Positions 1-53,900 of a DNA stretch of 64,000 nt are shown in pieces. Source of the stretch: Heterodontus francisci. Its lineage: Eukaryota. The notes beneath the pieces are model-generated. The model was not told where the DNA came from. It saw nothing but the letters and a program-made list of their open reading frames with translations, and ran no database searches. The stretch is taken from assembly GCF_036365525.1 (NCBI RefSeq), contig NW_027140861.1:186001-250000 (forward strand), read 5' to 3'. Within the stretch, counting starts at the first letter, position 1. Every line of letters starts with the position of its first letter. Made by a program: the position numbers and the translations under genes.

Positions 1-2836
1 AAACATCAACCCCACAGAGAGAGAAAGAAATCAGGGCATGAACCCCAAATCAACAACCCCACACAGAGAGAGACATCAGGGCATGAACCCCAAAACATCA
101 ACCCCACAGAGAGAGAAAGAAATCAGGGCATGAACCCCAAATCAACAACCCCACACAGAGAGAGACATCAGGGCATGAACCCCAAAACATCAACCTCACA
201 GAGAGAGAGAGAGACATCAGGGCATGAACCCTAAAACATCAACCTCACAGAGAGAGAGAGACATCTGGGCATGAACCCCAAATCAACAACCCCACAGAGA
301 GAGAGACATCAGGGCATGAACCCCAAAACATCAACCCCACAGAGAAAGAAAGAAATCAGGGCATGAACCCCAAAACATCAACCTCACAGAGAGAGAGAGA
401 CATCTGGGCATGAACCCCAAATCAACAACCCCACAGAGAGAGAGACATCAGGGCATGAACCCCAAAACATCAACCTCACAGAGAGAGAGAGAGACATCTG
501 GGCATGAACCCCAAATCAACAACCCCACAGAGAGAGAGACATCAGGGCATGAACCCCAAAACATCAACCCCACAGAGAGAGAAAGACATCAGGGCATGAA
601 CCCCAAAACATTAACCCCACAGAGAGAGAAAGACATCAGGGCATGAACGCTAAAACACCAACCGCACAGAGAGACACATCAGGGCATGAACCCCAAAACA
701 CCAACCCCACAAAGAGAGAGAGAGAAAGACATCAGGGCATGAACCCCGAAATACCAACCCCACAGAGAAAGAGAGACATCAGGGCATGAACCCCAAATCA
801 CCAACCCCACAGAGAAAGAGAGACATCAGGGCATGAACCCCAAAACATCAACCCCACAGAGAGAGAGACATCAGGGCATGAACCCCAAAACATCAACCCC
901 ACAGAGATAGAGACATCAGGGCATGAACCCCAAAACATCAACCCCACAGAGAGAGAGAGAGACATCAGGGCATGAACCCCAAAACAACAACCCCACAGAG
1001 AGAGAGAGAGAGAGAGATCAGGGCATGAACCCCAAAACATCAACCCCACAGAGAGAGAAAGACATCAGGGCATGAACGCTAAAACACCAACCGCACAGGG
1101 AGACACATCAGGGCATGAACCCCAAATCACCAAACCCATGAGAGAGAGAGACATCAGGGCATGAACCCCAAAACACCAACCCCACAAAGAGAGAGAGAGA
1201 AAGACATCAGGGCATGAACCCCAAAATACCAACCCCACAGAGAAAGAGAGACATCAGGGCATGAACCCCAAATCACCAACCCCACAGAGAAAGAGAGACA
1301 TCAGGGCATGAACCCCAAAACACCAACCCCACAGAGAGAGAAAGAGACATCAGGGCATGAACCCCAAAACATCAACCCCACAGCGAGAGACAGACATCAG
1401 GGCATGAACCCCAAAACATCAACCCCACAGAGAGAGAGAGAGAGACATCAGGGCATGAACCCCAAAACATCAACCCCACAGAGAGAGAGAGAGAGACATC
1501 AGGGCATGAACCACAAAACATCAACCCCACAGAGTGAGAGAGAGACATCAGGGCATGAACCCCAAAACATCAACCCCACAGAGAGAGAGAGAGAGACATC
1601 AGGGCATGAACCCTAAAACACCAACCCCAGAGAGAGAAAGAGAGACATCAGGGCATGAACCCCAAAACACCAACCCCACAGAGAGAGATAGACATCAGGG
1701 CATGAACCCCAAAACACCAACCCCACAGAGAGAGAGAGAGAGACATCAGGGCATGAACCCCAAAACATCAACCCCACAGAGAGAGAGAGAGACATCAGGG
1801 CATGAACCCCAAAACATCAACCCCACAGAGAGAGAGAGAGAGACATCAGGGCATGAACCCCAAAACATCAACCCCAGAGAGAGAAAGAGAGAGAGATCAG
1901 GGCATGAACCCCAAAACACCAACCCCACAGAGAGAGATAGACATCTGGGCATGAACCCCAAAACACCAACCCCACAGAGAGAGACATCAGGGCATGAACC
2001 TCAAAACATCAACCCCACAGAGAGAGAGAGAGACATCAGGGCATGAACCCCAAAACACCAACCCCACAGAGAGAGAGAGAGAGACATCAGGGCATGAACC
2101 CCAAAACATCAACCCCACAGAGAGAGAGAGAGAGAGACATCAGGGCATGAACCCCAAAACACCAACCCCACAGAGAGAGAGAGAGAGACATCAGGGAATG
2201 AACCCCAAAACATCAACCCCACAGAGAGAGAGAGAGAGACATCAGGGCATGAACCCCAAAACATCAACCCCAGAGAGAGAGAGAGACATCAGGGCATGAA
2301 CCCTAAAACATCAACCCCACAGAGAGAGAGAGACATCAGGGCATGAACCCCAAAACATCAACCCCACAGAGAGAGAGAGAGAGACATCAGGGCACGAACC
2401 CCAAAACATCAACCCCACACAGAGAGAGAGAGAGACATCAGGGCATGAACCCCAAAACACCAACCCCACAGAGAGAGAGAGAGAGAGAGACATCAGGGCA
2501 TGAACCCCAAAACATCGACCCCACAGAGAGAGAGAGAGAGACAGAGAGACATCAGGGCATGAACCCCAAAACATCAACCCCAGAGAGAGAGAGAGAGAGA
2601 GAGACATCAGGGCATGAACCCTAAAACATCAACCCCACAGAGAGAGAGAGAGAGAGAGACATCAGGGCATGAACCCCAAAACATCGACCCCACAGAGAGA
2701 GAGAGAGAGAGAGACATCAGGGCATGAACCCCAAAACACCAACCCCAGAGCGAGAGAGAGAGAGACATCAGGGCATGAACCTCAAAACACCAACCCCAGA
2801 GAGAGAGAGAGAGAGAGACATCAGGGCATGAACCCC
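1..2836. repeat. Compound minisatellite, ~48-60 bp unit GACATCAGGGCATGAACCCCAAAACA(T/C)CAACCCCACA(GA)n, roughly 50-55 copies, truncated by window start
   Basis: Tandem units directly visible; unit length varies with the embedded (GA)n tract. Confidence 0.97.
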
Positions 2837-2999
2837 AAATCCTCAACTGCGCGCACACACAGACACCCCATCTCCCACAGATATCAGAGCATAAAGCCTA
2901 AAACAGCAATGCCATACATATATAGAGAGTGACATCAGGGCAAGAAGCCCAAACACAAAACCCACAGTGACAGTATATGAACCCAAAGATGCATCCAAG

Positions 3000-5272
3000 C
3001 AACACAACATAGAGCCCATATGAATAAACACCAACACAACACAGAGCCCCTGTAAATAAACCCCAACACAACACAGAGCCCCTGGAAATAAACACCGACA
3101 CAACGCAACATAGAGGCCCTGTAAATAAACCCCAACACAACACAGAGCCCCTGGAAATAAACACCCACACAACACAACATAGAGCCCCTGTAAATAAACA
3201 CCAACACAACACAGAGCCCCTGGAAATAAACACCAACACAACACAGAGCCCCTATAAATAAACACCAACACAACACAGAGCCCCTGTAAATAAACACCAA
3301 CACAACACAGAGCCCCTGTAAATAAACCCCAATAAAACACAGAGCCCCTATAAATAAACCCCAACATAACACAGAGCCCCTGGAAATTAACATCAATACA
3401 ACACAGAGCCCCTGTAAATAAACACCAACACAACACAGAGCCCCTGAAAATAAATCCCAATAAAACACAGATCCCCTATAAATAAACACCAACACAAAAC
3501 AGAGCCCCTGGAAATAAACCCCAACACAACACAGAGCCCCTATAAATAAACCTCAGCACAACACAGAGCCCCTGTAATTATACCCCAACACAACACAGAG
3601 CCCCTATAAATAAACCCCAACATAACACATAGCCCCTGGAAATTAACACCAATGCAACACAGAGCCCCTGTAAATAAACACCAACACAACACAGAGCCCC
3701 TGGAAATAAACCCCAATAAAACACAGAGCCCCTATAAATAAACACCAACACAAAACAGAGCCCCTGGAAATAAACCCCAACACAACACAGAGCCCTTATA
3801 AATAAACCCCAGCACAACACAGAGCCCCTATAAATAAACCCCAACATAACACAGAGCCCCTGGAAATTAACACCAATACAACACAGAGCCCCTGTAAATA
3901 AACACCAACACAACACAGAGCCCCTGTAAATAAACACAACACAACACAGAGCCCCTGTAAATAAACACAACACAACACAGAGCCCCTGTAAATAAACACC
4001 AACACAACACAGAGCCCCTGTAAATAAACCCCAGCACAACACAGAGCCCCTATAAATAAACACCAACACAACACAGAGCCCCTGTAAATAAACACAACAC
4101 AACACAGAGCCCCTGTAAATAAACACCAACACAACACAGAGCCCCTGTAAATAAACCCCAGCACAACACAGAGCCCCTATAAATAAACACCAACACAAAA
4201 CAGAGCCCCTGTAAATAAACCCCAACACAACACAGAGCCCTTATAAATAAACCCCAGCACAACACAGAGCCCCTATAAATAAACCCCAACATAACACAGA
4301 GCCCCTGGAAATTAACACCAATACAACACAGAGCCCCTGTAAATAAACACCAACACAACACAGAGCCCCTGTAAATAAACACAACACAACACAGAGCCCC
4401 TGTAAATAAACACAACACAACACAGAGCCCCTGTAAATAAACACCAACACAACACAGAGCCCCTGTAAATAAACCCCAGCACAACACAGAGCCCCTATAA
4501 ATAAACACCAACACAACACAGAGCCCCTGTAAATAAACACAACACAACACAGAGCCCCTGTAAATAAACACCAACACAACACAGAGCCCCTGTAAATAAA
4601 CCCCAGCACAACACAGAGCCCCTATAAATAAACACCAACACAACACAGAGCCCCTGTAAATAAACCCCAGCACAACACAGAGCCCCTGTAAATAAACCCC
4701 AGCACAACACAGAGCCCCTGTAAATAAACCCCAGCACAACACAGAGCCCCTGTAAATAAACCCCAACACAACACAGAGCCCCTATAAATAAACCCCAGCA
4801 CAACACAGAGCCCCTATAAATAAACCCCAACATAACACAGAGCCCCTGGAAATAAACACCAACACAACACAGAGCCCCTGGAAATGAACACCAACACAAC
4901 ACAGAGCCCCTATAAATAAACACCAACACAACACAGAGCCCCTGGAAATGAACACCAACACAACACAGAGCCCCTATAAATAAACCCCAGCACAACACAG
5001 AGCCCCTATAAATAAACCCCAACATAACACAGAGCCCCTGGAAATAAACACCAACACAACACAGAGCCCCTGGAAATGAACACCAACACAACACAGAGCC
5101 CCTGTAAATAAACACCAACACAACACATGGTCCCTGTAACTAAACCTCAACACAACAGAGCATCCTGTAAATAAAACCCAACATAACTCAGAGCCTCTGT
5201 AAATAAACCAGTACACATCACAGAGGGCCTGTCAATAAACCCCAACACAACACAACACAATACAGAGCCCCT
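3000..5272. repeat. 32-bp minisatellite CACCAACACAACACAGAGCCCCTGTAAATAAA (~70 copies, some 30-bp variants)
   Basis: Tandem units visible; minus-strand ORFs repeat every 32 aa (3 units); identical ORFs at 3796 and 4241 show a 445-bp higher-order duplication. Confidence 0.97.
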
Positions 5273-5752: not shown

Positions 5753-6400
5753 ACAACAAGAACTTGTATTTATATAGTGCCTGTGACATTACACAATATC
5801 CCAAAGTGCTTCACAGGGGCATTACAAAACAAAATATGACAGAGGGCCACATAAGGAGATATTAGAACAGCGGATCAAAAGCTTGGTTAAAGAGGTAGGT
5901 TTTCAGGTGTGTCTTAAAGGAGGAAAGTGAGTTAGAGAGGTGGAGAGGTGTAGGGAGGGAATTCCAGAGCCTGAGGCCTTGTCAATCAAAGGTAAGGGCA
6001 CCAATGGTGGAACGTTTAAAATCAGGGATGTTCCAGAGGCCAGAATTAGAGCAGTACAGATATCTCAGAGGGTTGTGGAACCGGAGGGTGTTACAGAGGT
6101 TGGAAGGGACGAGGCCATGGAGGGATTTGAAAATATGGATGAGAATTTTCAAATTGATATTTGTTTAACTGGGTGCGAGTGTAGGTCAGTGAGCACAGGG
6201 GTGATGGGTGAATGGGATTTGGTGCAAGTTAGGAAATGGGCAGCAAGGTTTTGGATGACCGCAAGGTTACAGAGGGTAGAATGTGAGAGGCAAGTCAGGA
6301 ATGTGTTAGAATAGTGACGTCTGAAAGTAACAAAGACATGGATGAGGTTTCAGCAGCAGAAGAGCTGAGAGAGGGTGATATTACAGAGGTGGAAATGGTA
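5753..6400 (-). mobile_element. L2-like LINE 3' fragment
   Basis: Starts with ACAACAAGAACTTGTATTTATATAGTGCC...CCCAAAGTGCTTCACA, the reverse complement of the shark L2/DeuSINE-type tail, followed by GGAGGGAATTCCAGAG-type L2 body. Confidence 0.7.
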
Positions 6401-6532
6401 AATGAAGTTGAGGTACAAATCAATTATGATCAAATACAAATGCTGTTGCTATCGTTCTCTCTCTCTATCTCCATTCTGCAGTCCCATGTCCCTCACTCCC
6501 CCTAAAGTCTCTCTCCATTCTCCAGTCCCAGT

Positions 6533-6703
6533 GCCCAGTCTAGCACTGAAACCCTCTCAGAGCCCATTACTCACTGACCAAGGGTTAATGCCCCAGTACC
6601 CAGCCTGGCACTGAGTCCTCTCAGAGCCCATTACCCACTGACCAAGGGTTAATGCCCCAGTACCCAGCCTGGCACTGAGACCCTCTCAGTCCCCATTACT
6701 CAC
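6533..6703. repeat. 64-bp tandem repeat (~2.6 copies) at the start of intron 1, including the splice-donor sequence
   Basis: CCAAGGGTTAATGCCCCAGTACCCAGCCTGGCACTGAG recurs at 6578 and 6642. Confidence 0.9.
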
Positions 6704-6752
6704 CTGCAGAGACTCCTCCACACAGGAGGACCAGTTCTATCACTCCAATCAT
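6704..6752 (-). CDS. Signal-peptide exon 1, probably of an MHC class I heavy-chain gene (shark UBA-like leader); rest of gene lies left of the window
   Basis: ATG at 6752 with A at -3; 49 nt = MIGVIELVLLCGGVSA + G; consensus phase-1 donor CAG|GTGAGT. The LLCGGVSA ending resembles shark class I leaders as I recall them. Class I-type promoter lies upstream. Confidence 0.72.
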
Positions 6753-6814
6753 TGTTGCTTCCCTCAACAGTCTGGGATGAACAGTTTGTGGGGAATCCTT
6801 TTCCCAACTACTGT

Positions 6815-7110
6815 CTCGGGCTCTGTGAGCTGTGTCCAGTTCAGACTGTGTGATTCCTCTGCCCCGTGTTCTGGGTCTGTGAGCTGTGTCCAGTTCAGAC
6901 TGTGTGATTTCTCTGCCCCGTGTTCTGGGTCTGTGAGCTGTGTCCAGTTCAGACTGTGTGATTCCTCTGCCCCGTGTTCTGGGTCTGTGAGCTGTGTCCA
7001 GTTCAGACTGTGTGATTTCTCTGCCCCGTGTTCTGGGTCTGTGAGCTGTGTCCAGTTCAGACTGTGTGATTCCTCTGCCCCGTGTTCTGGGTCTGTGAGC
7101 TGTGCCCAGT
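6815..7110. repeat. 54-bp tandem repeat (~5.3 copies) between promoter and ATG (putative 5' UTR VNTR)
   Basis: Unit CTGTGAGCTGTGTCCAGTTCAGACTGTGTGATT(C/T)CTCTGCCCCGTGTTCTGGGT; 18-aa periodicity in ORF 6696..7121. Confidence 0.96.
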
Positions 7111-7114
7111 GCTG

Positions 7115-7270
7115 ATTGCATTAAATCAGAAGATGTTGTTGGTTATTCAGACTGCTGCATACTGATTGGTTCGTTAGCATATTTGTGTCCAATCAGAATA
7201 AAACTACAGTAGTCTCTGGGCGAAAAAGATTTAGAAACCAGGAGCTGTGAATTGAAAAAGGGAAAGGTTT
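7115..7270 (-). promoter_or_regulatory. MHC class I-type promoter: IRF/ISRE-like site, X-like box, Y box, CCAAT box, TATA-like
   Basis: Minus-strand order: CTTTCCCTTTTTC (7254-7266), CCCAGAGACTACTG (7220-7207), CTGATTGG (7196-7189), 19 nt, CCAATCAG (7169-7162), TTTAAT (~7125-7120). Confidence 0.65.
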
Positions 7271-7399
7271 GCAGAGTGAGTCTACCTCCAAGGAAGACCA
7301 GTGACACTCCAATGTCAATAAGCAGGATGGAAAATCAGTGTGGAGTGAATATTGGAAACTGTAAGATAAACAATGGGTTAAGGGAGAAGGTAGCTGTAA

Positions 7400-8286
7400 A
7401 AGTAACCTAAAGGATACACAGGCAACATTAAAGGCTGCACCACAGACTAAGTCAACCCCAGATACAGGAAACCACAAATAGTGTCAACAGGAACTCGTGT
7501 TTGCTCAGGTTTAAAGTAGACATGTAGAAGTGTGGTGGAACGGCGAATGGTCCAGGAGGGGCTGGAAGATGCAACTGATTGAGATGTTCCTGCTGACAAG
7601 GGCAATACTGACTATCTTAGGGATGGACCCTGCTTAACTATTAGCACAGGCGGGTGGAGTAAGACAAGGAGCCCTGAAACATTCTCGAGCATCTTTAACA
7701 TTTATATCTTGGGAGTAGGGGTGACAGGAGGAGAAGGGAAGTGAGCACCAGCCATGACAGACCCCAGATTTAAATCCTTATTCCTTGTTTGATTATCTCC
7801 CATTCTAAAGGAGAAGGTGGGAGTGTCGGTCCACAAAGGATTGGACTGGGAACAAGCTATATAAGAGGTGACACCAGGTTGGGATCATCCAGCAGGTGAG
7901 TGAGTTTGAGCAGCGGAGACTCAGAAAAGGCAGGTCTCAGCTGTGGACGAGCCTTGTCCCACTAGGGACAGAGACTGGGACTGAGCCAGTCCACAAGCGA
8001 GCCACACACAGTCTGAACTACTCGTACTGTGATAAACCAGGTCATGTGGACAGGAATTGGAGATCTGGGAGAGAAAGGGGGTCCACACTTTGGACGAGCA
8101 CCCTAGGGAGGAGATGGAGGAGAAAGTGATCACATTCACTGCTTTGGACAACAGATTGAGTGATTAGAAACTCTGCTGAACATGGAGAAGATTACTGAGA
8201 GAGTGGCTGCAGCAAGCTGAGGGCCTCCCATTATCCTAAAGTCAAGATCAACAGAAGGAGGCATGGCCAACAGAGAATCCCAATAG
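7400..8286 (+). pseudogene. gag: Decayed ERV gag (lokiretrovirus-like)
   Basis: NLKDTQATLKAA..DTGNHK*CQQE coiled-coil-like part (~7404); capsid-like MTDPRFKSLFLV*LSPILKEKVG..LDWEQAI (7754); broken zinc knuckle (Y)SYCDKPGHVDRN(W) at 8019-8060; stops and frameshifts throughout. Confidence 0.8.
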
Positions 8287-11200
8287 AGAAGGAGAGGACT
8301 CCTCATAGTCAGGAGTGAGGGTCCAATGTGATGGGTTAGGGAGGAGGGAGTGGTCTCCCCACAGTTGAGAGTGAGGGTCCGATGTGATGGGTTAGAGAGG
8401 CGGGAGTGGTCTCCCCACAGTTGGAGTGAGGGTCCGATGTGATAGGTTGGGGAGGAGGGAGTGGGCTCTTCACAGTTGAGAGTGAGGGTCCAATATGATG
8501 GGTTAGGAAGGAGGGACTGGTCTTCCCACAGTTGAGAGTGAGGGTCCGATGTGATAGATTAGGGAGGAGGGAGTGGGCTCCCCACAGTTGAGAGTGAGGG
8601 TCCGATGTGATGGGTTAGGGAGGAGGGAGTGGTCTCCCCACAGTTGGAGTGAGGGTCCGATGTGATGGGTTAGGGAGGAGGGAGTGGTCTCCCCACAGTT
8701 GGAGTGAGTGTCCGATGTGATGGGTTAGGGAGGAGGGAGTGGGCTCCCTACAGTTGGAGTGAGGGTCCGATGTGATAGGTTAGGGAGGAGGGAGTGGGCT
8801 CCCTACAGTTGGAGTGAGGGTCCGATGTGATAGGTTAGGGAGGAGGGAGTGGTCTCCCCACTGTTGAGAGTGAGGGTCCACTGTGATGGGTTAGGGAGGA
8901 GGGAGTGGTCTCCCCACAGTTGGAGTGAGTGTCCGATGTGATCGGTTAGGGAGGAGGGAGTGGTCTCCCCACAGTTGGAGTGAGTGTCCGATGTGATGGG
9001 TTAGGGAGGAGGGAGTGGGCTCCCTACAGTTGGAGTGAGGGTCCGATGTGATAGGTTAGGGAGGAGGGAGTGGGCTCCCTACAGTTGGAGTGAGGGTCCG
9101 ATGTGATAGGTTAGGGAGGAGGGAGTGGTCTCCCCACTGTTGAGAGTGAGGGTCCACTGTGATGGGTTAGGGAGGAGGGAGTGGACTCCCCACAGTTGGA
9201 GTGAGTGTCCGATGTGATCGGTTAGGGAGGAGGGAGTGGTCTCCCCACAGTTGGAGTGAGGGTCCAATGTGATAGGTTAGGGAGGAGGGAGTGGGCTCCC
9301 TACAGTTGGAGTTAGGGTCCGATGTGATAGGTTAGGGAGGAGGGAGTGGGCTCCCTACAGTTGGAGTGAGGGTCCGATGTGATAGGTTAGGGAGGAGGGA
9401 GTGGGCTCCCTGCGGTTGGAGTGAGGGTCCAATATGATGGGTTAGGGAGGAGGGAGTGGTCTCCCCACAGTTGAGAGTGAGGGTCCGATGTGATAGGTTA
9501 GGGAGGAGGGAGTGGTCTCCCCACAGTTGAGAGTGAGGGTCCAATATGATGGGTTAGGGAGGAGGGAGTGGGCTCCCTACAGTTGGAGTGAGGGTCCGAT
9601 GTGATAGGTTAGGGAGGAGGGAGTGGGCTCCCTACAGTTGGAGTGAGGGTCCGATGTGATAGGTTAGGGAGGAGGGAGTGGGCTCCCTACAGTTGGAGTG
9701 ACGGTCCAATGTGATAGGTTAGGGAGGAGCGAGTGGGCTCCCTACAGTTGGAGTGAGGGTCCGATGTGATAGGTTAGGGAGGAGGGAGTGGGCTCCCCAC
9801 AGTTGAGAGTGAGGGTCCGATGTGATAGGTTAGGGAGGAGGGAGTGGTCTCCCCACAGTTGAGAGTGAGGGTCCAATGTGATGGGTTAGGGAGGAGGGAG
9901 TGGTCTCCCCACAGTTGAGAGTGAGGGTCCGATGTGATAGGTTAGGGAGGAGGGAGTGGTCTCCCCACAGTTGAGAGTGAGTGTCTAATGTGATGGGTTA
10001 GGGAGGAGGGAGTGGGCTCCCTACAGTTGGAGTGACGGTCCAATGTGATAGGTTAGGGAGGAGCGAGTGGGCTCCCTACAGTTGGAGTGAGGGTCCGATG
10101 TGATAGGTTAGGGAGGAGGGAGTGGGCTCCCCACAGTTGAGAGTGAGGGTCCGATGTGATAGGTTAGGGAGGAGGGAGTGGTCTCCCCACAGTTGAGAGT
10201 GAGGGTCCAATGTGATGGGTTAGGGAGGAGGGAGTGGTGTCCCCACAGTTGGAGTGAGGGTCCAATGTGATGGGTTAGGGAGGAGGGAGTGGTCTCCCCA
10301 CAGTTGAGAGTGAGGGTCCAATGTGATGGGTTAGGGAGGAGGGAGTGGTCTCCCCACAGTTGAGAGTGAGGGTCCAATGTGATGGGTTAGGGAGGAGGGA
10401 GTGGGCTCCCTACAGTCGGAGTGAGGGTCCGATGTGATAGGGTAGGGAGGAGGGTGTGGGCTCCCCACAGTTGCGAGTGAGGGTCCGATGTGATAGGTTA
10501 GGGAGGAGGGAGTGGTCTCCCTGCAGTTGGAGTGAGGGTCTGATGTGATAGGTTAGGGAGGTGGGAGTGGTCTCCCCACAGTTGAGAGTGAGGGTCCAAT
10601 GTGATGAGTTAGGGAGGAGGGAGTGGTCTCCCCACAGTTGGAGTGTGTCCGATGTGATCGGTTAGGGAGGAGGGAGTGGTCTCCCCACAGTTGGAGTGAG
10701 GGTCCGATGTGATAGGTTAGGGAGGAGGGAGTGGTCTCCCCACAGTTGGAGTGAGTGTCCGATGTGATCGGTTAGGGAGGAGGGAGTGGTCTCCCCACAG
10801 TTGAGAGTGAGGGTCCGATGTGATAGGTTAGGGAGGAGGGAGTGGTCTCCCCACAGTTGAGAGTGAGGGTCCAATGTGATGGGTTAGGGAGGAGGGAGTG
10901 GGCTCCCCACAGTTGAGAGTGAGGGTCCAATGTGATGGGTTAGGGAGGAGGGAGTGGTCTCCCCACAGTTGGAGTGAGGGTCCAATGTGATGTTAGGGAG
11001 GAAGGAGTGGTCTCCCCACAGTTGGAGTGAGTGTCCGATGTGATTGGTTAGGGAGGAGGGAGTGGTCTCCCCACAGTTGGAGTGAGGGTCCGATGTGATC
11101 GGTTAGGGAGGAGGGAGTGGTGTCCCCACAGTTGGAGTGAGGGTCCAATGTGATGGGTTAGGGAGGAGGGAGTGGTCTCCCCACAGTTGGAGTGAGGGTC

Positions 11201-14200
11201 CGATGTGATCGGTTAGGGAGGAGGGAGTGGTCTCCCCACAGTTGGAGTGAGGGTCCAATCTGATGGAGGATTGAGGGAGGAGGGAGTGGTCTCCCCACAG
11301 TTGGAGTGAGGGTCCAATGTGATGGGTTAGGGAGGAGGGAGTGGTCTCCCCACAGTTGAGAGTGAGGGTCCAATGTGATGGGTTAGGGAGGAGGGAGTGG
11401 TCTCCCCACAGTTGAGAGTGAGGGTCCAATGTGATGGGTTAGGGAGGAGGGAGTGGGCTCCCTACAGTCGGAGTGAGGGTCCGATGTGATAGGGTAGGGA
11501 GGAGGGTGTGGGCTCCCCACAGTTGCGAGTGAGGGTCCGATGTGATAGGTTAGGGAGGAGGGAGTGGTCTCCCTGCAGTTGGAGTGAGGGTCTGATGTGA
11601 TAGGTTAGGGAGGAGGGAGTGGTCTCCCCACAGTTGAGAGTGAGGGTCCAATGTGATGAGTTAGGGAGGAGGGAGTGGTCTCCCCACAGTTGGAGTGTGT
11701 CCGATGTGATCGGTTAGGGAGGAGGGAGTGGTCTCCCCACAGTTGGAGTGAGGGTCCGATGTGATAGGTTAGGGAGGAGGGAGTGGTCTCCCCACAGTTG
11801 GAGTGAGTGTCCGATGTGATCGGTTAGGGAGGAGGGAGTGGTCTCCCCACAGTTGAGAGTGAGGGTCCGATGTGATAGGTTAGGGAGGAGGGAGTGGTCT
11901 CCCCACAGTTGAGAGTGAGGGTCCAATGTGATGGGTTAGGGAGGAGGGAGTGGGCTCCCCACAGTTGAGAGTGAGGGTCCAATGTGATGGGTTAGGGAGG
12001 AGGGAGTGGTCTCCCCACAGTTGGAGTGAGGGTCCAATGTGATGTTAGGGAGGAAGGAGTGGTCTCCCCACAGTTGGAGTGAGTGTCCGATGTGATCGGT
12101 TAGGGAGGAGGGAGTGGTCTCCCCACAGTTGGAGTGAGGGTCCGATGTGATCGGTTAGGGAGGAGGGAGTGGTGTCCCCACAGTTGGAGTGAGGGTCCAA
12201 TGTGATGGGTTAGGGAGGAGGGAGTGGTCTCCCCACAGTTGGAGCGAGGGTCCGATGTGATCGGTTAGGGAGGAGGGAGTGGTCTCCCCACAGTTGGAGT
12301 GAGGGTCCAATCTGATGGAGGATTGAGGGAGGAGGGAGTGGTCTCCCCACAGTTGGAGTGAGGGTCCAATCTGATGGAGAATTGAGGGAGGAGGGAGTGG
12401 GCTCCCCACAGTTGAGAGTGAGAGTCCAATGTGATGGGTTAGGGAGGAGGGAGTGGGCTCCCCACAGTTGAGAGTGAGGGTCCGATGTGATAGGTTAGGG
12501 AGGAGGGAGTGGTCTCCCCACAGTTGAGAGTGAGGGTCCAATGTGATGGGTTAGGGAGGAGGGAGTGGGCTCCCTACATTTGGAGTGAGGGTCCGATGTG
12601 ATAGGTTAGGGAGGAGGGAGTGGGCTCCCCACAGTTGAGAGTGAGGGTCCGATGTGATAGGTTAGGGAGGAGGGAGTGGTCTCCCCACAGTTGAGAGTGA
12701 GGGTCCAATGTGATGGGTTAGGGAGGAGGGAGTGGTCTCCCCACAGTTGGAGTGAGGGTCCGATGTGATAGGTTAGGGTGGAGGGAGTGGTCTCCCCACA
12801 GTTGGAGTGAGTGTCCGATGTGATCGGTTAGGGAGGAGGGAGTGGTCTCCCCACAGTTGGAGTGAGTGTCCGATGTGATGGGTTAGGGAGGAGAGAGTGG
12901 TCTCCCCACAGTTGGAGTGAGGGTCCGATGTGATGGGTTAGGGAGGAGGGAGTGGGCTCCCCACAGTTGGAGTGAGGGTCCGATGTGATAGGTTAGGGAG
13001 GAGGGAGTGGGCTCCCCACAGTTGGAGTGAGGGTCCGATGTGATCGGTTAGGGAGGAGGGAGTGGTCTCCCCACAGTTCCAGTGAGGGTCCGATGTGATC
13101 GGTTAGGGAGGAGGGAGTTGTCTCCCCACAGTTGGAGTGAGGGTCTGATGTGATCGGTTAGGGAGGAGGGAGTGGTCTCCCCACAGTCGGAGTGAGGGTC
13201 CGATGTGATCGGTTAGGGAGGAGGGAGTGGTGTCCCCACAGTTGGAGTGAGGGTCCAATGTGATGGGTTAGGGAGGAGGGAGTGGTCTCCCCACAGTTGG
13301 AGTGAGGGTCCGATGTGATCGGTTAGGGAGGAGGGAGTGGTCTCCCCACAGTTGGAGTGAGGGTCCAATCTGATGGAGGATTGAGGGAGGAGGGAGTGGT
13401 CTCCCCACAGTTGGAGTGAGGGTCCAATGTGATGGGTTAGGGAGGAGGGAGTGGTCTCCCCACAGTTGAGAGTGAGGGTCCAATGTGATGGGTTAGGGAG
13501 GAGGGAGTGGTCTCCCCACAGTTGAGAGTGAGGGTCCAATGTGATGGGTTAGGGAGGAGGGAGTGGGCTCCCTACAGTCGGAGTGAGGGTCCGATGTGAT
13601 AGGGTAGGGAGGAGGGTGTGGGCTCCCCACAGTTGCGAGTGAGGGTCCGATGTGATAGGTTAGGGAGGAGGGAGTGGTCTCCCTGCAGTTGGAGTGAGGG
13701 TCTGATGTGATAGGTTAGGGAGGAGGGAGTGGTCTCCCCACAGTTGAGAGTGAGGGTCCAATGTGATGAGTTAGGGAGGAGGGAGTGGTCTCCCCACAGT
13801 TGGAGTGTGTCCGATGTGATCGGTTAGGGAGGAGGGAGTGGTCTCCCCACAGTTGGAGTGAGGGTCCGATGTGATAGGTTAGGGAGGAGGGAGTGGTCTC
13901 CCCACAGTTGGAGTGAGTGTCCGATGTGATCGGTTAGGGAGGAGGGAGTGGTCTCCCCACAGTTGAGAGTGAGGGTCCGATGTGATAGGTTAGGGAGGAG
14001 GGAGTGGTCTCCCCACAGTTGAGAGTGAGGGTCCAATGTGATGGGTTAGGGAGGAGGGAGTGGGCTCCCCACAGTTGAGAGTGAGGGTCCAATGTGATGG
14101 GTTAGGGAGGAGGGAGTGGTCTCCCCACAGTTGGAGTGAGGGTCCAATGTGATGTTAGGGAGGAAGGAGTGGTCTCCCCACAGTTGGAGTGAGTGTCCGA

Positions 14201-16040
14201 TGTGATCGGTTAGGGAGGAGGGAGTGGTCTCCCCACAGTTGGAGTGAGGGTCCGATGTGATCGGTTAGGGAGGAGGGAGTGGTGTCCCCACAGTTGGAGT
14301 GAGGGTCCAATGTGATGGGTTAGGGAGGAGGGAGTGGTCTCCCCACAGTTGGAGCGAGGGTCCGATGTGATCGGTTAGGGAGGAGGGAGTGGTCTCCCCA
14401 CAGTTGGAGTGAGGGTCCAATCTGATGGAGGATTGAGGGAGGAGGGAGTGGTCTCCCCACAGTTGGAGTGAGGGTCCAATCTGATGGAGAATTGAGGGAG
14501 GAGGGAGTGGGCTCCCCACAGTTGAGAGTGAGAGTCCAATGTGATGGGTTAGGGAGGAGGGAGTGGGCTCCCCACAGTTGAGAGTGAGGGTCCGATGTGA
14601 TAGGTTAGGGAGGAGGGAGTGGTCTCCCCACAGTTGAGAGTGAGGGTCCAATGTGATGGGTTAGGGAGGAGGGAGTGGGCTCCCTACATTTGGAGTGAGG
14701 GTCCGATGTGATAGGTTAGGGAGGAGGGAGTGGGCTCCCCACAGTTGAGAGTGAGGGTCCGATGTGATAGGTTAGGGAGGAGGGAGTGGTCTCCCCACAG
14801 TTGAGAGTGAGGGTCCAATGTGATGGGTTAGGGAGGAGGGAGTGGTCTCCCCACAGTTGGAGTGAGGGTCCGATGTGATAGGTTAGGGTGGAGGGAGTGG
14901 TCTCCCCACAGTTGGAGTGAGTGTCCGATGTGATCGGTTAGGGAGGAGGGAGTGGTCTCCCCACAGTTGGAGTGAGTGTCCGATGTGATGGGTTAGGGAG
15001 GAGAGAGTGGTCTCCCCACAGTTGGAGTGAGGGTCCGATGTGATGGGTTAGGGAGGAGGGAGTGGGCTCCCCACAGTTGGAGTGAGGGTCCGATGTGATA
15101 GGTTAGGGAGGAGGGAGTGGGCTCCCCACAGTTGGAGTGAGGGTCCAATGTGATCGGTTAGGGAGGAGGGAGTGGTCTCCCCACAGTTCCAGTGAGGGTC
15201 CGATGTGATCGGTTAGGGAGGAGGGAGTTGTCTCCCCACAGTTGGAGTGAGGGTCTGATGTGATCGGTTAGGGAGGAGGGAGTGGTCTCCCCACAGTCGG
15301 AGTGAGGGTCCGATGTGATCGGTTAGGGAGGAGGGAGTGGTCTCCCCACAGTTGAGAGTGTGGGTCCGATATGATCGGTTAGGGAGGAGGGAGTGGTCTT
15401 CCCACAGTCGGAGTGAGGGTCCGATGTGATCGGTTAGGGAGGAGGGAGTGGTCTTTCCACAGTCGGAGTGTGGGTCCGATGTGATCGGTTAGGGAGGAGG
15501 GAGTTGTCTCCCCACAGTTGAGAGTGAGTGTCCAATCTGATGGAGGATTGAGGGAGGAGTGGTGTCCCTACAGCTGGTATAAGGGTCCAATGTGATGGGA
15601 GAGTGAGGTGGGGTGTTCTCCCCACAGTCGGAGTGAGGGTCTGATGTGATAGGGGCGTGAGGAGGGAGTGGTCTTCCCACAGTCGGAGTGAGGGCCTGAT
15701 GTGATAGGGGCGTGAGGAGGGAGTGGTCTTCCCACAGTCGGAGTGAGGGTCTGATGTGATAGGGGCGTGAGGAGGGAGTGGTCTTCCCACAGTCGGAGTG
15801 AGGGTCTGATGTGATAGGGGCGTGAGGAGGGAGTGGTCTTCCCACAGTCGGAGTGAGGGTCTGATGTGATAGGGCCGTGAGGAGGGAGTGGTCTCCCCAC
15901 AGTCGGAGTGAGGGTCCAATGTGATGGGTTAGGGAGGAGGGAGTGGTCTTCCCACAGTCGGAGTGAGGGTCCGATGTGATAGGGGCGTGAGGAGGGAGTG
16001 GTCTTCCCACAGTCGGAGTGAGGGTCTGATGTGATGGGGT
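8284..16040 (+). repeat. 55/56-bp G-rich minisatellite TTAGGGAGGAGGGAGTGGTCTCCCCACAGTTG(A)GAGTGAGGGTCCGATGTGATGGG, ~140 copies
   Basis: Tandem units visible; identical ORFs offset by 2110 bp (11103/13213, 11714/13824, 12155/14265) and 1052 bp (10662/11714). Confidence 0.98.
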
Positions 16041-16635
16041 TGCTCTACCCAGTTGTTCTGGTTGGCCACAGACAGGATTTATTGATAAACACTGGATCAT
16101 TATTGACCATCACACATACCTCACAGTGTCAAACCCAGCCAATGAGGAAAGGGAAACTTGCTTCACTTTCAGGCTTTAACAGGCTGGTTATCCCAGAATA
16201 TGAAGCTCAGTCATGTTACATAGAAATTGTAGACAGTTTATGGTTGTGGGTACAGGAGCCCATCCTGGTGACTATAACAGGAAACTCGGGTAAACTGGGC
16301 TCTGATGTGTTCTCTGTGGTGGGGATGTGTGTTAAATATATAATGGATAACTGCATCTACATGTTGTGTCAGGAAGGAATGTTGAAATGTCAGATGCTTA
16401 CAAGGTTTGTGCTGTTCAGAAACCTGAGGTCTCTCTGTTCCCAATGCACAGAGACAGAGCCCTATAAGAACATTGCAAAATACACCAGCAAGTTTGTTAA
16501 ACACAAACACAACTGCAGAAAGTTAGCAGGAGTGGAATACATAACAGGGTCACCTCACCAAACCCGAAAGGAATTCCCTATACCTGAGGAGAGTGAACCT
16601 CATTATCAAGACCAACCTTGATCTACTTTTTTCAG
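16031..16635 (+). pseudogene. pol: ERV protease plus N-terminus of reverse transcriptase, truncated
   Basis: LLINTGSLLTIT = aspartic protease DTG with D>N; flap-like LSGFN; LGSD motif; RT start FVKHKHNCRKLAGVEYITGSPHQTRKEFPIPEESE, then IIKTNLDLL in a shifted frame. Confidence 0.85.
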
Positions 16636-16680
16636 TCAAACCCACTGCACTGTCAGTGGAAATATTCTTTTTATGTGATG

Positions 16681-19600
16681 TCAGCTGGGCCTCGATGGTA
16701 GCACTCTCACCTCACAATCAGAATTTCCCAATCATTCAGCACAAAATCTAGGCTGATACTTTGGTGCAGTACTGAGGGAGTGCTGCACTGTCGGAGGGTC
16801 AGTACGGAGGGAGTGCTGCACAGTCGGAGGGTCGGTACTGAGAGAGCACAGCACTGTCGGAGGGGCAGTACTGAGGGAGTGCTGCACTGTCGGTGGGACA
16901 GTACTGAGGGAGTGCTGCACTGTCGGAGGGTCGGTACTGAGAGAGCACAGCACTGTCGGAGGGGCAGTACTGAGGGAGGGCTGCACTGTCAGAGGGTAAG
17001 TACTGAGGGAGGGCTGCACTGTCAGAGGGTAAGTACTGAGGGAGTGCTGTGCTGTCAGAGGGTAGGTACTGAGGGGCAGCTGCATTGTCGGTGGGTCAGC
17101 ACTGAGGGAAAGCTGCATTGTCAGAGGGTAAGTACTGAGGGAGGGCTGCACTGTCAGAGGGTAAGTACTGAGGGAGGGCTGCACAGTCGGTTGGTCAGTA
17201 CTGAGGGAAAGCTGCATTGTCAGAGGGTAAGTACTGAGGGAGAGCTGCACTGTCAGAGGGTAAGTACTGAGGGAGGGCTGCACTGTCAGAGGGTAAGTAC
17301 TGAGGGACAGCTGCATTGTCGGTGGGTCGGTACTGAGGGAGAGCTGCACTGTCGGTGGGTCAGTACTGAGGGAGAGCTGCATTGTCGGTGGGTCAGCATT
17401 GAGGGAAAGCTGCATTGTCAGAGGGTAAGTACTGAGGGAGGGCTGCACTGTCAGAGGGTAAGTACTGAGGGAGGGCTGCACTGTCAGAGGGTAAGTACTG
17501 AGGGACAGCTGCATTGTCGGTGGGTCGGTAGGGAGGGAGTGCTGCACTGTCGGTGGGTCAGTACTGAGGGAGTGCTGCATTGTCGGTGGGTCAGTACTGA
17601 GGGAGGTCTGCACTGTCAGAGGGTAAGTACTGAGGGAGTGCTGCACTGTCGGTGGGTCGGTACTGAGGGAGAGCTGCACTGTCGGTGGGTCAGTACTGAG
17701 GGAGGGCTGCACTGTCAGAGGATAAGTACTGAGGGAGTGCTGCACTGTCGGTGGGTCAGTACTGAGGGAGAGCTGCATTGTCAGTGGGTCGGTACTGAGG
17801 GAGTGCTGCATTGTCGGTGGGTCAGTCCTGAGGGAAAGCTGCAGTGTCGTTGGGTCAGTACTGAGGGAGTGCTGCACTGTCGGTGGGTCAGTACTGAGGG
17901 AGAGCTGCACTGTCGGTGGGTCGGTACAGAGGGTGAGCTGCATTGTCAGAGGGTCAATACTGAGGGAGGGCTGCACTGTCAGAGTAAGTACTGAGGGAGG
18001 GCTGCACTGTCAGAGGGTAAGTACTGAGGGAGGGCTGCACTGTCAGAGGGTAAGTACTGAGGGAGTGCTGCACTGTCGGTGGGTCAGTACTGAGGGAAAG
18101 CTGCATTGTCAGAGGGTAAGTACTGAGGGAGGGCTGCACTGTCAGAGGGTAAGTACTGAGGGAGGGCTGCACTGTCAGAGGGTAAGTACTGAGGGACAGC
18201 TGCATTGTCGGTGGGTCGGTACTGAGGGAGAGTTGCACTGTCGGTGGGTCAGTACTGAAGGAGTGCTGCATTGTCGGTGGGTCAGTATTGAGGGAAAGCT
18301 GCATTGTCAGAGGGTAGGTACTGAGGGAGGGCTGCACTGTCAGAGGGTAAGTACTGAGGGACAGCTGCATTGTCGGTGGGTCGGTACTGAGGGAGAGCTG
18401 CACTGTCGGTGGGTCAGTACTGAAGGAGTGCTGCATTGTCAGAGGGTCAGTACTGAGGGAGTGCTGCACTGTCATAGGGTCAATACTGAGGGAGGGCTGC
18501 ACTGTCAGAGGGTAAGTACTGAGGGACAGCTGCATTGTCGGTGGGTCGGTACTGAGGGAGAGCTGCACTGTCGGTGGGTCAGTACTGAGGGAGTGCTGCA
18601 CTGTCGGTGGGTCAGTACTGAGGGAGAGCTGCATTGTCAGAGGGTCAATACTGAGGGAGGGCTGCACTGTCAGAGGGTACGTACTGAGGGACAGCTGCAT
18701 TGTCGGTGGGTCGGTACTGAGGGAGAGCTGCACTGTCGGTGGGTCAGTACTGAGGGAGAGCTGCACGGTCAGTGGGTCGGTACTGAGGGAGTGCTGCATT
18801 GTCAGAGGGTCAGTACTGAGGGAGTGCTGCACTGTCGGTGGGTCAGTACTGAGGGAGTGCTGCACTGTCGGTGGGTCAGTACTGAGGGAGTGCTGCATTG
18901 TCGGTAGGTCGGTACTGAGGGAGAGCTGCACTGTCGGTGGGTCAGTACTGAGGGAGGGCTGCACTGTCAGAGGATAAGTACTGAGGGAGTGCTGCACTGT
19001 TGGTGGGTCAGTACTGAGGGAGAGCTGCATTGTCAGTGGGTCGGTACTGAGGGAGTGCTGCATTGTCGGTGGGTCAGTACTGAGGGAAAGCTGCAGTGTT
19101 GGTGGGTCAGTACTGAGGGAGTGCTGCACTGTCGGTGGGTCAGTACTGAGGGAGAGCTACACTGTCGGTGGGTCAGTACTGAGGGAGAGCTGCACTGTCG
19201 GTGGGTCGGTACAGAGGGTGAGCTGCATTGTCAGAGGGTCAATACTGAGGGCGGGCTGCACTGTCAGAGAGTAAGTACTGAGGGAGAGCTGCATTGTCAG
19301 AGGGTAAGTACTGAGGGAGGGCTGCACTGTCAGAGGGTAAGTACTGAGGGAGGGCTGCACAGTCGGTTGGTCAGTACTGAGGGAAAGCTGCATTGTCAGA
19401 GGGTAAGTACTGAGGGAGGGCTGCACTGTCAGAGGGTAAGTACTGAGGGAGGGCTGCACTGTCAGAGGGTAAGTACTGAGGGACAGCTGCATTGTCGGTG
19501 GGTCGGTACTGAGGGAGAGCTGCACTGTCGGTGGGTCAGTACTGAGGGAGAGCTGCATTGTCGGTGGGTCAGCATTGAGGGAAAGCTGCATTGTCAGAGG

Positions 19601-22600
19601 GTAAGTACTGAGGGAGGGCTGCACTGTCAGAGGGTAAGTACTGAGGGAGGTCTGCACTGTCAGAGGGTAAGTACTGAGGGACAGCTGCATTGTCGGTGGG
19701 TCGGTACTGAGGGAGAGCTGCACTGTCGGTGGGTCAGTACTGAGGGAGAGCTGCACTGTCGGTGGGTCAGTACTGAGGGAGAGCTGCACTGTCGTTGGGT
19801 CGGTACTGAGGGAGTGCTGCATTGTCAGAGGGTCAGTACTGAGGGAGTGCTGCACTGTCAGAGGGTCAGTACTGAGGGAGGGCTGCACTGTCAGAGGGTA
19901 AGTACTGAGGGACAGCTGCATTGTCGGTGGGTCAGTACTGAGGGAGTGCTGCACTGTCGGTGGGTCAGTACTGAGGGAGTGCTGCATTGTCGGTGGGTCA
20001 GTACTGAGGGAGGGCTGCACTGTCAGAGGGTAAGTACTGAGGGAGTGCTGCACTGTCGGTGGGTCGGTACTGAGGGAGAGCTGCACTGTCGGTGGGTCAG
20101 TACTGAGGGAGGGCTGCACTGTCAGAGGATAAGTACTGAGGGAGTGCTGCACTGTCGGTGGGTCAGTACTGAGGGAGAGCTGCATTGTCAGTGGGTCGGT
20201 ACTGAGGGAGTGCTGCATTGTCGGTGGGTCAGTCCTGAGGGAAAGCTGCAGTGTCGTTGGGTCAGTACTGAGGGAGTGCTGCACTGTCGGTAGGTCAGTA
20301 CTGAGGGAGAGCTGCACTGTCGGTGGGTCGGTACAGAGGGTGAGCTGCATTGTCAGAGGGTCAATACTGAGGGAGGGCTGCACTGTCAGAGAGTAAGTAC
20401 TGAGGGAGGGCTGCACTGTCAGAGGGTAAGTACTGAGGGAGGGCTGCACTGTCAGAGGGTAAGTACTGAGGGAGTGCTGCACTGTCGGTGGGTCAGTACT
20501 GAGGGAAAGCTGCATTGTCAGAGGGTAAGTACTGAGGGAGGGCTGCACTGTCAGAGGGTAAGTACTGAGGGAGGGCTGCACTGTCAGAGGGTAAGTACTG
20601 GGGGACAGCTGCATTGTCGGTGGGTCGGTACTGAGGGAGAGCTGCACTGTCGGTGGGTCAGTACTGAAGGAGTGCTGCATTGTCGGTGGGTCAGTATTGA
20701 GGGAAAGCTGCATTGTCAGAGGGTAAGTACTGAGGGAGGGCTGCACTGTCAGAGGGTAAGTACTGAGGGACAGCTGCATTGTCGGTGGGTCGGTACTGAG
20801 GGAGAGCTGCACTGTCGGTGGGTCAGTACTGAAGGAGTGCTGCATTGTCAGAGGGTCAGTACTGAGGGAGTGCTGCACTGTCATAGGGTCAATACTGAGG
20901 GAGGGCTGCACTGTCAGAGGGTAAGTACTGAGGGACAGCTGCATTGTCGGTGGGTCGGTACTGAGGGAGAGCTGCACTGTCGGTGGGTCAGTACTGAGGC
21001 AGTGCTGCACTGTCGGTGGGTCAGTACTGAGGGAGAGCTGCATTGTCAGAGGGTCAATACTGAGGGAGGGCTGCACTGTCAGAGGGTACGTACTGAGGGA
21101 CAGCTGCATTGTCGGTGGGTCGGTACTGAGGGAGAGCTGCACTGTCGGTGGGTCAGTACTGAGGGAGAGCTGCACGGTCAGTGGGTCGGTACTGAGGGAG
21201 TGCTGCATTGTCAGAGGGTCAGTACTGAGGGAGTGCTGCACTGTCGGTGGGTCAGTACTGAGGGAGTGCTGCACTGTCGGTGGGTCAGTACTGAGGGAGT
21301 GCTGCATTGTCGGTAGGTCGGTACTGAGGGAGAGCTGCACTGTCGGTGGGTCAGTACTGAGGGAGGGCTGCACTGTCAGAGGATAAGTACTGAGGGAGTG
21401 CTGCACTGTTGGTGGGTCAGTACTGAGGGAGAGCTGCATTGTCAGTGGGTCGGTACTGAGGGAGTGCTGCATTGTCGGTGGGTCAGTACTGAGGGAAAGC
21501 TGCAGTGTTGGTGGGTCAGTACTGAGGGAGTGCTGCACTGTCGGTGGGTCAGTACTGAGGGAGAGCTGCACTGTCGGTGGGTCAGTACTGAGGGAGAGCT
21601 TCACTGTCGGTGGGTCGGTACAGAGGGTGAGCTGCATTGTCAGAGGGTCAATACTGAGGGAGGGCTGCACTGTCAGAGAGTAAGTACTGAGGGACAGCTG
21701 CATTGTCAGAGGGTAAGTACTGAGGGAGGGCTGCACTGTCAGAGGGTAAGTACTGAGGGAGGGCTGCACAGTCGGTTGGTCAGTACTGAGGGAAAGCTGC
21801 ATTGTCAGAGGGTAAGTACTGAGGGAGGGCTGCACTGTCAGAGGGTAAGTACTGAGGGAGGGCTGCACTGTCAGAGGGTAAGTACTGAGGGACAGCTGCA
21901 TTGTCGGTGGGTCGGTACTGAGGGAGAGCTGCACTGTCGGTGGGTCAGTACTGAGGGAGAGCTGCATTGTCGGTGGGTCAGCATTGAGGGAAAGCTGCAT
22001 TGTCAGAGGGTAAGTACTGAGGGAGGGCTGCACTGTCAGAGGGTAAGTACTGAGGGAGGGCTGCACTGTCAGAGGGTAAGTACTGAGGGACAGCTGCATT
22101 GTCGGTGGGTCGGTACTGAGGGAGAGCTGCATTGTCAGTGGGTCGGTACTGAGGGAGTGCTGCATTGTCGGTGGGTCAGTCCTGAGGGAGAGCTGCAGTG
22201 TCGTTGGGTCAGTACTGAGGGAGTGCTGCACTGTCGGTAGGTCAGTACTGAGGGAGAGCTGCACTGTCGGTGGGTCGGTACAGAGGGTGAGCTGCATTGT
22301 CAGAGGGTCAATACTGAGGGAGGGCTGCACTGTCAGAGAGTAAGTACTGAGGGAGGGCTGCACTGTCAGAGGGTAAGTACTGAGGGAGGGCTGCACTGTC
22401 AGAGGGTAAGTACTGAGGGAGTGCTGCACTGTCGGTGGGTCAGTACTGAGGGAAAGCTGCATTGTCAGAGGGTAAGTACTGAGGGAGGGCTGCACTGTCA
22501 GAGGGTAAGTACTGAGGGAGGGCTGCATTGTCAGAGGGTAAGTACTGGGGGACAGCTGCATTGTCGGTGGGTCGGTACTGAGGGAGAGCTGCACTGTCGG

Positions 22601-25600: not shown

Positions 25601-26206
25601 CGGTGGGTCAGCACTGAGGGAGTGCTGCACTGTCGGTGGGTCAGTACTGAGGGAGGGCTGCACTGTCGGTGGGTCAGTACTGAGGGAGGGCTGCACTGTC
25701 AGAGGGTAAGTACTGAGGGAGTGCTGCATTGTCGGTGGGTCGGTACTGAGGGAGAGCTGCACTGTCGGTGGGTCTGTACTGAGGGAGGGCTGCACTGTCA
25801 GAGGGTAAGTACTGAGGGTGTGCTGCACTGTCGGTGGGTCAGTACTGAGGGAGAGCTGCATTGTCAGTGGTTCGGTACTGAGGGAGTGCTGCATTGTCGG
25901 TGGGTCAGTACTGAGGGAAAGCTGCAGTGTCAGTGAGTCAGTACTGAGGGAGAGCTGCATTGTCAGTGTGTCGGTACTGAGGGAGGGCTGCATTGTCAGA
26001 GGGTCAGTACTGAGGGAGTGCTGCACTGTCGGTGGGTCAGTACTGAGGGACAGCTGCATTGTCGGTGGGTCGGTACTGAGGGAGAGCTGCACTGTCGGTG
26101 GGTCAGTACTGAAGGAGAGCTGCACTGTCGGTGGGTCAGTACTGAGGGACAGCTGCACTGTCAGTGGGTCGGTCCTGAGGGAGTGCTGCAGTGTCGGAGG
26201 TGCCAT
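16681..26206 (+). mobile_element. DeuSINE (SacSINE1-like) remnant hosting the 33-bp array
   Basis: Head GGTAGCACTCTCACCTC...GCACAAAATCTAGGCTGATACT..GTGCAGTACTGAGGGAGTGCTGCACTGTCGGAGG before the array; SINE continuation CGGAGGTGCC right after it. Confidence 0.75.
16766..26200 (+). repeat. 33-bp minisatellite AGTACTGAGGGAGTGCTGCACTGTCGGTGGGTC, ~285 copies, with higher-order blocks
   Basis: 11-aa periodic ORFs on both strands; identical 280-aa ORFs at 20474 and 22421 (offset 1947 = 59 units). Confidence 0.98.
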
Positions 26207-50425: not shown

Positions 50426-50429
50426 GGCC

Positions 50430-51850: not shown

Positions 51851-51861
51851 TTGGTATCACA

Positions 51862-53897: not shown

Positions 53898-53900
53898 TAC

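Follow-up and report, generated by a model that had tools for sequence, protein, structure and literature searches.

How did a minisatellite of 140 units come to lie between the gag and protease remnants of an endogenous retrovirus (ERV)? This question is raised by a stretch of 64,000 nucleotides of Heterodontus francisci DNA (assembly GCF_036365525.1, contig NW_027140861.1, positions 186,001 to 250,000 of the forward strand), hereafter called the window. A first-pass annotation, made from the sequence alone, had proposed that the repeat was amplified in place from the element's own gag-stop/protease junction rather than inserted as a foreign sequence, and that this junction was a UAG-G read-through signal of the gamma- and epsilonretroviral kind. 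The comparisons described here make it very probable that the unit derives from the junction, that the array grew in place in a dead copy and that the block holding it was duplicated to ten loci; the junction of this family is best read as a candidate read-through signal built on UGA.

The array unit and the junction of related elements

Tandem Repeats Finder (TRF) detected a minisatellite of 7.7 kb at positions 8312-16038, with a period of 55, 139.4 copies and 92% matches, and anchoring on one motif gave 140 units, spaced by 55 (81 cases), 56 (45), 53 (6), 59 (4), 60 (2) or 54 nucleotides (1). These results confirm the 55/56-bp array that the first-pass annotation had placed between gag and protease. 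The details that it had given stood as well: the gag remnant ends in CAA-TAG (8281-8286, with the TAG at 8284), the left flank is itself a degenerate unit (8284-8336), shorter than the typical ones, the translation proposed for a 55-bp unit is that of the natural unit at 8616, and the last unit continues directly into LLYPVVLVGHRQDLLINTGS, in a stop-free frame spanning 16022-16621. Head-to-tail unit joints were also present in X9, another sample that bears this species label, where 37 raw reads go back 55, so that the repeat is not an assembly artefact; the copy numbers per locus reported below are counts in the assembly.

The left flank is gag-like: a single weak match of 44 aa (36%, E 0.002) links it to the gag frame of the related locus L088, and a control stretch of the window gave no match to that frame. 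On the right, the stop-free frame resembles an aspartic protease at its start and the beginning of a reverse transcriptase (RT) at its end, and the flank is 24% identical to residues 1-176 of a Xenopus tropicalis pol. The catalytic-motif position of the protease is not Asp in the window copy, nor in eight young paralogs. By itself, the window protease frame found no match in Pfam or in the PDB, and its assignment therefore rests on the relatives. With 150 of 366 candidates scored, the right flank matched the genome at 51 places, 41 of which are other places of the same family. Thirty of these were taken as relatives (26 as 10-kb and 4 as 3.5-kb loci), 29 of them giving a protease alignment, while the 11 places left out lie on unplaced contigs and appear to be near-copies of one locus, L089.

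When three natural units were compared with the 150 nt preceding the protease, 12, 9 and 15 of 27 relatives (two near-duplicates having been dropped) reached p<=0.05; the same test gave 0, 0, 1 and 0 of 27 for four other satellites of the window and 1 for a reversed unit, and the mean score was not attained by any of 1000 dinucleotide shuffles. A comparable picture emerged without any anchor, by taking the best match of a natural unit in the whole locus and on both strands: it fell at the junction in 7/29 and 8/29 relatives for the two units used, as compared to 0/29 for three other satellites and 0-2 for 20 shuffles. In addition, the boundaries of the unit fall at the stop and at the end of the hairpin described below. 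The junction regions themselves are free of tandem repeats in 28 of the 29 relatives, the remaining one having a poly-G tract, and the 11 loci found by pattern show no tandem repeat over the junction motif, one of them having an 18-bp repeat just upstream.

Several observations weigh against this correspondence. Unit and junction align closely over the 3' half and only loosely over the 5' half, the array units carry TAG where the family has TGA, 12-18 of the 27 relatives are individually non-significant, and the reversed unit reached a weak Fisher P of 0.024. Moreover, Fisher and combined P values overstate the case because the relatives are kin, a kinship that the controls share. The two nearest relatives by their flanks (68-81% DNA identity), L085 (G000:C17 ~93.044 Mb) and L084 (G000:C13 ~45.110 Mb), have lost the junction, through a deletion reaching from late gag into RT in one case and through an insertion resembling a long interspersed element in the other. 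This leaves copies at 23-33% protease identity as the basis of the comparison and is the main weakness of the case.

In conclusion, all the alignments taken together well support the homology of the array unit to the element's own gag-stop/protease junction, of which the relatives carry a single copy, as had been predicted. Amplification in place rather than foreign insertion is supported by this homology, by the single copy in the relatives and by the lack of arrays elsewhere. The two outcomes that the first-pass annotation had named as speaking against it, proviruses lacking the unit and arrays devoid of ERV flanks, are not what we found, since the relatives carry the unit once and no exact match to the unit motif lies away from the element.

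Ten loci and the growth of the array

Both flanks recur together at nine places, namely C815, C1655 and seven on C29 (57.4-62.8 Mb), which are 97-99% identical, and the array lies between them at each of these nine young loci. A tenth, older array of 66 units maps to C29:54.515-54.520 Mb; its units are 84% identical to those of the window and in the same phase, and it shares one odd variant unit with the window array. At this tenth locus the same host flank lies ~1.6 kb upstream and an RT remnant ~590 bp downstream, other repeats standing in place of gag and protease. The ten loci hold 34, 38, 41, 58, 58, 59, 66, 88, 140 and 167 units. An exact 21-letter motif had 173 forward and 113 reverse matches in the 6.0-Gb assembly, and exactly 173 + 113 (286/286) fall within the ten loci, the search being an exact one that more diverged arrays could escape. 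The genome-wide mapping suggested by the first-pass annotation thus found no unit array away from the element; what that annotation had missed is the place of the array in a duplicated block, present in ten copies of varying length.

The host flank at 6507..7202 has 24 matches, all on C29 or on unplaced contigs, and the similarity of the window to four of the blocks (L163, L164, L165 and L115) ends at 7202-7203. Most C29 blocks lack the array. An env-like remnant follows 14-38 kb downstream in eight of the nine young copies, and no 5' long terminal repeat (LTR) was seen ahead of the gag remnant. The segment 6705-6830 was considered as an LTR and rejected, as it occurs only in C29 blocks. Because the sequence ahead of gag belongs to the host and is confined to the repeated C29 blocks, the ten loci likely derive from duplications of one block with one insertion, and the array would be older than the split of the tenth locus. 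A DNA search with the RT stretch of that locus returned only an inserted common repeat and no closer relatives.

We propose that one copy of the element would have integrated in a C29 block and then lost its 5' end and most of pol. The 55/56-bp segment that begins with the stop triplet and ends shortly beyond the hairpin would have been duplicated head to tail inside this dead integrated copy, with a shared sequence of only about one base at the duplication joint. Slippage and unequal exchange would then have lengthened and shortened the array as duplication carried the block to ten loci. Unequal exchange is indicated by the exact 1958-base repeat within the window array (Table 1) and by the doubling, in the tenth array, of an insertion resembling a short interspersed element (SINE), which marks an exchange that followed the insertion. 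This 365-bp SINE-like sequence occurs at 6390-6751 and 8027-8388 of locus L086 (G000:C29 ~54.516-54.518 Mb), with a period of ~1640 bp.

The head-to-tail joint also brings four G-runs together, creating G-quadruplex (G4) motifs that may have helped to destabilise the array. The window array contains 43 G4-like motifs, the tenth array 60 and the 29 single junction regions none; by analogy with the human minisatellites CEB1 and CEB25, such motifs, whose G4 formation is predicted from the pattern, may have favoured slippage. This part of the scenario is weakened by the neighbouring 33- and 37-bp satellites, which are equally long and contain no G4-like motif, so that G4 is not needed for expansion here. 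The hexamer TTAGGG, which is the vertebrate telomere repeat, was observed at the joints of many units in the young arrays (e.g. window 8665-8675) and is missing from the majority of joints in the older tenth array. The array is probably neutral and without function; one contig guessed to be RNA, at depth 2, is evidence neither for nor against its expression.

The coordinates of the features are collected in Table 1, which includes eight other tandem arrays; minisatellite sequence makes up about half of the window, and its 64-bp repeat is expanded in other C29 blocks. G000:C29 ~32-65 Mb is a large region of repeated blocks with 80-99% identity. A second remnant of the same family is present at window 35115-40650 (+), where LTR-like pieces at ~35115-35293 and 40000-40650 match the LTRs of L118, L092, L093 and L097, and an env-like Cys-rich frame with a hydrophobic tail spans 38955-39530; this remnant is likely a separate insertion, because it has dozens of copies on C29, most of them without the gag-array piece. 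By eye, long frames at 40803-42290 (-) and 49400-53950 (-) resemble RT and ORF1/endonuclease remnants of non-LTR retrotransposons, and no host gene was identified in the window.

Table 1. Coordinates of the features of the window (position 1 is its first nucleotide)
Feature	Position	Strand	Remarks
Host flank	6507..7202		common to other copies of the duplicated C29 block, most without the retroviral piece
Broken gag remnant	7225..8283	+	stops and frame changes
Zinc-knuckle remnant, degenerate	8025..8060	+	in relatives, CCHC-type knuckle 270-550 nt upstream of the junction (13/23) and Pfam zf-CCHC in L088
Minisatellite, 140 units	8284..16038	+	stop triplet, purine-rich spacer, C tract, hairpin with G-rich loop
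First unit, degenerate	8284..8336	+	opens with TAG; site of the family TGA that follows a CCCAA context (L090, L091, L095, L104)
Higher-order duplication within the array	11079..15146	+	1958 identical bases, period 2110
Protease and start of RT	16040..16660	+	stop-free to 16618; rest of pol absent
Other tandem array	1-2847		period 47 bp
Other tandem array	3000-5254		period 32 bp
Other tandem array	6527-6703		period 64 bp
Other tandem array	6822-7110		period 54 bp
Other tandem array	16767-26197		period 33 bp
Other tandem array	27050-34855		period 37 bp
Other tandem array	43867-44620		period 69 bp
Other tandem array	50959-51850		period 72 bp

A candidate UGA read-through signal in a foamy-like family

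The anchor triplet used to align the junctions was found in 26 of the 29 relatives; after one false anchor and two near-duplicates were dropped, 23 junctions remained. In 19 of them a TGA precedes the anchor by 21-36 nt, and none has a TAG there; in 15 the TGA is in frame at a distance of 33 or 30 nt. The protease motif, found in 16, is in the anchor frame in 9, and in 8 its distance takes the modal value of 72 nt. The junction TGA of L088 closes a stop-free frame of 617 aa in which Pfam recognises zf-CCHC. Two loci, L036 (2065-2142, minus strand) and L092 (6306-6383, minus strand), were observed to have a sense codon where other relatives have TGA.

In the array, the TAG stands 33 nt before the anchor in 77 units and 34 nt in 44; in the first unit it is 31 nt before the anchor triplet, as compared to 30 or 33 for the TGA of the relatives. 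The last unit is separated from the protease motif by 61 nt instead of the modal 72 (8/16), indicating that the 3' junction also lost sequence. Both edges of the array are thus out of register with the family, and the TAG may either have been the stop of this copy from the outset or have arisen through decay.

The structure alignment comprised 21 junctions, two more having been dropped for spacer deletions, and it allows two crossing helices, one between the C tract and the G-rich loop and the other a 7-pair hairpin. The C-tract helix is nearly invariant, with 92% of cells paired and no double change. The hairpin has about 86-87.8% of cells paired as compared to 31-53% when slid, and it keeps at least 4 of 5 pairs in 132 of the 140 array units. 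One of its pairs is U-A in 9 junctions, G-C in 6, G-U in 2, A-U in 1 and unpaired in 3, its two sides falling on synonymous positions of a Ser and an Arg codon, and pairing at that position also occurs in 7 of 9 additional loci, which were retrieved with a pattern that does not fix the partner. From the in-frame stop, the spacer, the C tract and the covarying hairpin, we infer that the junction of the relatives is a UGA read-through signal. The UAG-G reading of the first-pass annotation did not hold up, given the TGA in 19/23 and the TAG in 0/23 junctions, two possible helices unlike the layout of the murine leukaemia virus (MuLV, MLV) pseudoknot, and an RT that a quick tree places outside the gamma-containing clade.

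Part of the data does not favour such a signal. The zinc knuckle, found in 13 relatives, is in frame in 7, and gag and pol are both in frame in 2 of the 9 decayed copies in which both motifs were found. Two pairs change on both sides, where shuffles expect 2.6 and 483 of 500 scored as high, and one of the two is explicable by CpG decay. RNAalifold returned the C-tract helix only, with no covariation, and the stability of single-sequence folds did not exceed that of shuffles (z -1.6 to +0.6). A search of Rfam gave no match in window 7000-10000 and one match at chance level (E 0.95) in four relative loci.

As for the family, the relatives carry protease, RT, a tether-like RNase H, a second RNase H and integrase, with LTR-like direct repeats in some. 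Specifically, RT_RNaseH is followed by RNase_H in L097, RNase_H is also found in L100 and L102, and the same domains occur in database relatives; this second RNase H after the tether speaks for a retrovirus (ERV) rather than a Gypsy retrotransposon. After integrase the relatives have an env-like Cys-rich open reading frame (ORF) with a hydrophobic tail, for which we obtained no Pfam match, no homolog among the longer database proteins and only an Atlas lead below 0.9. The paramyxovirus F-like Env domain PF00523 gave no match in a strict search in which the controls were silent too. Among database proteins, unnamed pols from X. tropicalis, coelacanth and frogs come closest (42-50%). The best solved structures in the PDB for an RT stretch of the family are foamy and then MLV, and in a structure search the Xenopus pol scored Ty3, foamy and MLV about equally.

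A quick RT tree was built from 68 rows, 16 of them from this genome (2 of 18 were dropped as short), with the tenth locus standing in for the window's own RT, with clade labels of our own and with no named foamy or epsilon sequence. In this tree the RTs of this genome group with the X. tropicalis pol at an SH-aLRT of 99 and fall within the retroviral clade marked by LPQG, outside the clade holding mammalian gamma-like ERVs; the element thus groups with the foamy-like pol genes of Xenopus and coelacanth. Membership in the gamma/epsilonretroviruses was rejected on the TGA and on this position of the RT. Lokiretrovirus membership was rejected as well, since the family has LPQG and lies outside the CPFG clade, which matches the lokiretrovirus sequences listed in the supplement of PMC7947760.

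Other explanations have to be weighed against these data. A foreign G-rich minisatellite, placed at the junction by insertion and similar to it only by coincidence, could be suspected in a window full of unrelated G-skewed satellites, and the loosely aligned 5' half and the TAG would suit it, but it is largely refuted by the position-specific similarity, by the negative controls, by the lack of any motif copy away from the element and by unit boundaries that coincide with the stop and the hairpin end, which leave it a very slim chance. The idea that the repeat was already present in a replicating element, the ten loci being separate insertions, seems hardly tenable: it could account for the 16-20% divergence of the tenth locus and the different neighbourhood right beside its array, but all ten loci lie on C29 or unplaced contigs with a common host flank and no 5' LTR, the insertion breakpoints are identical at nine loci and partly so at the tenth, the same env-like remnant follows in eight of the nine young copies, and repeated stops between gag and pol would block pol. 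We also regard it as very unlikely that the array was co-opted, as a transcribed structured RNA or as a recombination or chromatin signal of the block, and kept by selection. Its retention in ten loci across 16% divergence and the hairpin pairs preserved in most units would fit co-option, but most C29 blocks do without the array, copy number varies fivefold, the tenth array contains SINE-like insertions, and the similarity of the units is due to homogenisation.

The remaining explanation accepts the origin of the array from the junction and holds that the junction is conserved for the N-terminus of the protease or for another RNA role (packaging, splicing or frameshift), pol being made otherwise. 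Foamy viruses, for instance, make pol from a spliced RNA. In addition, the junction encodes a conserved peptide, WSEVGFRRD, in L087 and L088, gag and pol rarely share a frame in the copies with both motifs, and the helices cross without a 3'-side linker, unlike the classical H-type layout. Against it stand the TGA, whose in-frame distance stays fixed in 15 of 23 otherwise decaying copies, a covarying pair that involves synonymous codon positions, and the contexts UGA-CGG, UGA-CGA and UGA-AGA, which match those described for type II read-through, a zebrafish ERV and SSSV, the swim bladder sarcoma virus of salmon (PMC13517186). We therefore consider this explanation unlikely, and retain UGA read-through as the probable role of the junction.

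Relation to known systems and significance

Minisatellites born from transposable elements (TEs) are already common. Cases described include mouse Ms6-hm, from a MaLR LTR, soybean Gmr9/Ogre and Alu-derived human arrays (PMC6947457), and 23% of human mini/satellites are reported to come from TEs (PMC3389668). As in the cases described, a short piece of an integrated element would have been amplified locally, its length varying later (PMC6947457), and the features of a TE-derived minisatellite, namely positional homology, a single copy in relatives and variable copy number between loci, were all found here. The cases described arose from LTRs, SINEs and non-coding parts, whereas here the source is the coding gag-stop/protease junction, at almost exactly the size of the predicted recoding element. 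In the literature searched, outside which most subscription papers fall, there was no case of a satellite born from a gag-pol recoding junction, and this origin is the new aspect. The human minisatellites CEB1 and CEB25 are reportedly G4-unstable; our array is similar to them in its G-rich strand, in the G4-like motif of its tandem units and in its length instability, and differs in its retroviral origin and in a G4 that is predicted from the pattern.

The UAG pseudoknot of Moloney murine leukaemia virus (MoMLV), as described in a 2026 review (PMC13517186), shares with the family an in-frame stop between zinc knuckle and protease motif, a purine-rich spacer and downstream G/C-rich helices. Unlike MoMLV, the family has UGA as its stop, its first helix starts ~12 nt after the stop instead of 8, its helices cross without a long loop, and its RT lies outside the gamma-containing clade. 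UGA gag-pro junctions are described for SSSV, a zebrafish ERV and a frog ERV, distantly related to epsilonretroviruses, with an AGA/CGA-type context like that found here (PMC13517186). The same review gives read-through and cis-elements as unverified in epsilonretroviruses and the cis-elements of unclassified aquatic retroviruses as unknown. This family differs from those three elements, whose cis-elements are likewise given as unknown, in that it groups elsewhere and has a covarying hairpin. The foamy-like elements CmiFLERV and XtrFLERV of shark and frog (PMC5512871), compared here by description only, resemble the family in its grouping with the X. tropicalis pol and in its best PDB matches to foamy Pol. 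For those elements only pol is described (PMC5512871), whereas here a CCHC-knuckle gag, an in-frame UGA, LTRs and an env-like ORF are found. Finally, ERVs like snakehead retrovirus (SnRV) and epsilon-like ERVs are described from the elephant shark (PMC4422223), and the available part of PMC5210030 holds no statement on pol expression.

All together, the locus offers a traceable satellite birth: dozens of relatives still hold the source as a single copy, the limits of the unit fall at those of a predicted functional RNA element, and ten copies, dated by their divergence, document the expansion. In addition, the family provides over 30 junctions as they occur in nature, in which the UGA is conserved and the hairpin covaries; this by-product may matter more than the array itself. 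A bolder reading, to which we give slightly less than an even chance, is that the unit is a complete recoding element amplified up to 167-fold, exposing a working UGA signal, in the form of a two-helix switch or an unusual pseudoknot, in a basal foamy-like lineage with a CCHC gag. If this were true, read-through and not splicing would be the way in which this lineage makes pol, and the element's own structure, a hairpin together with a G4 formed only on duplication, would have seeded a satellite.

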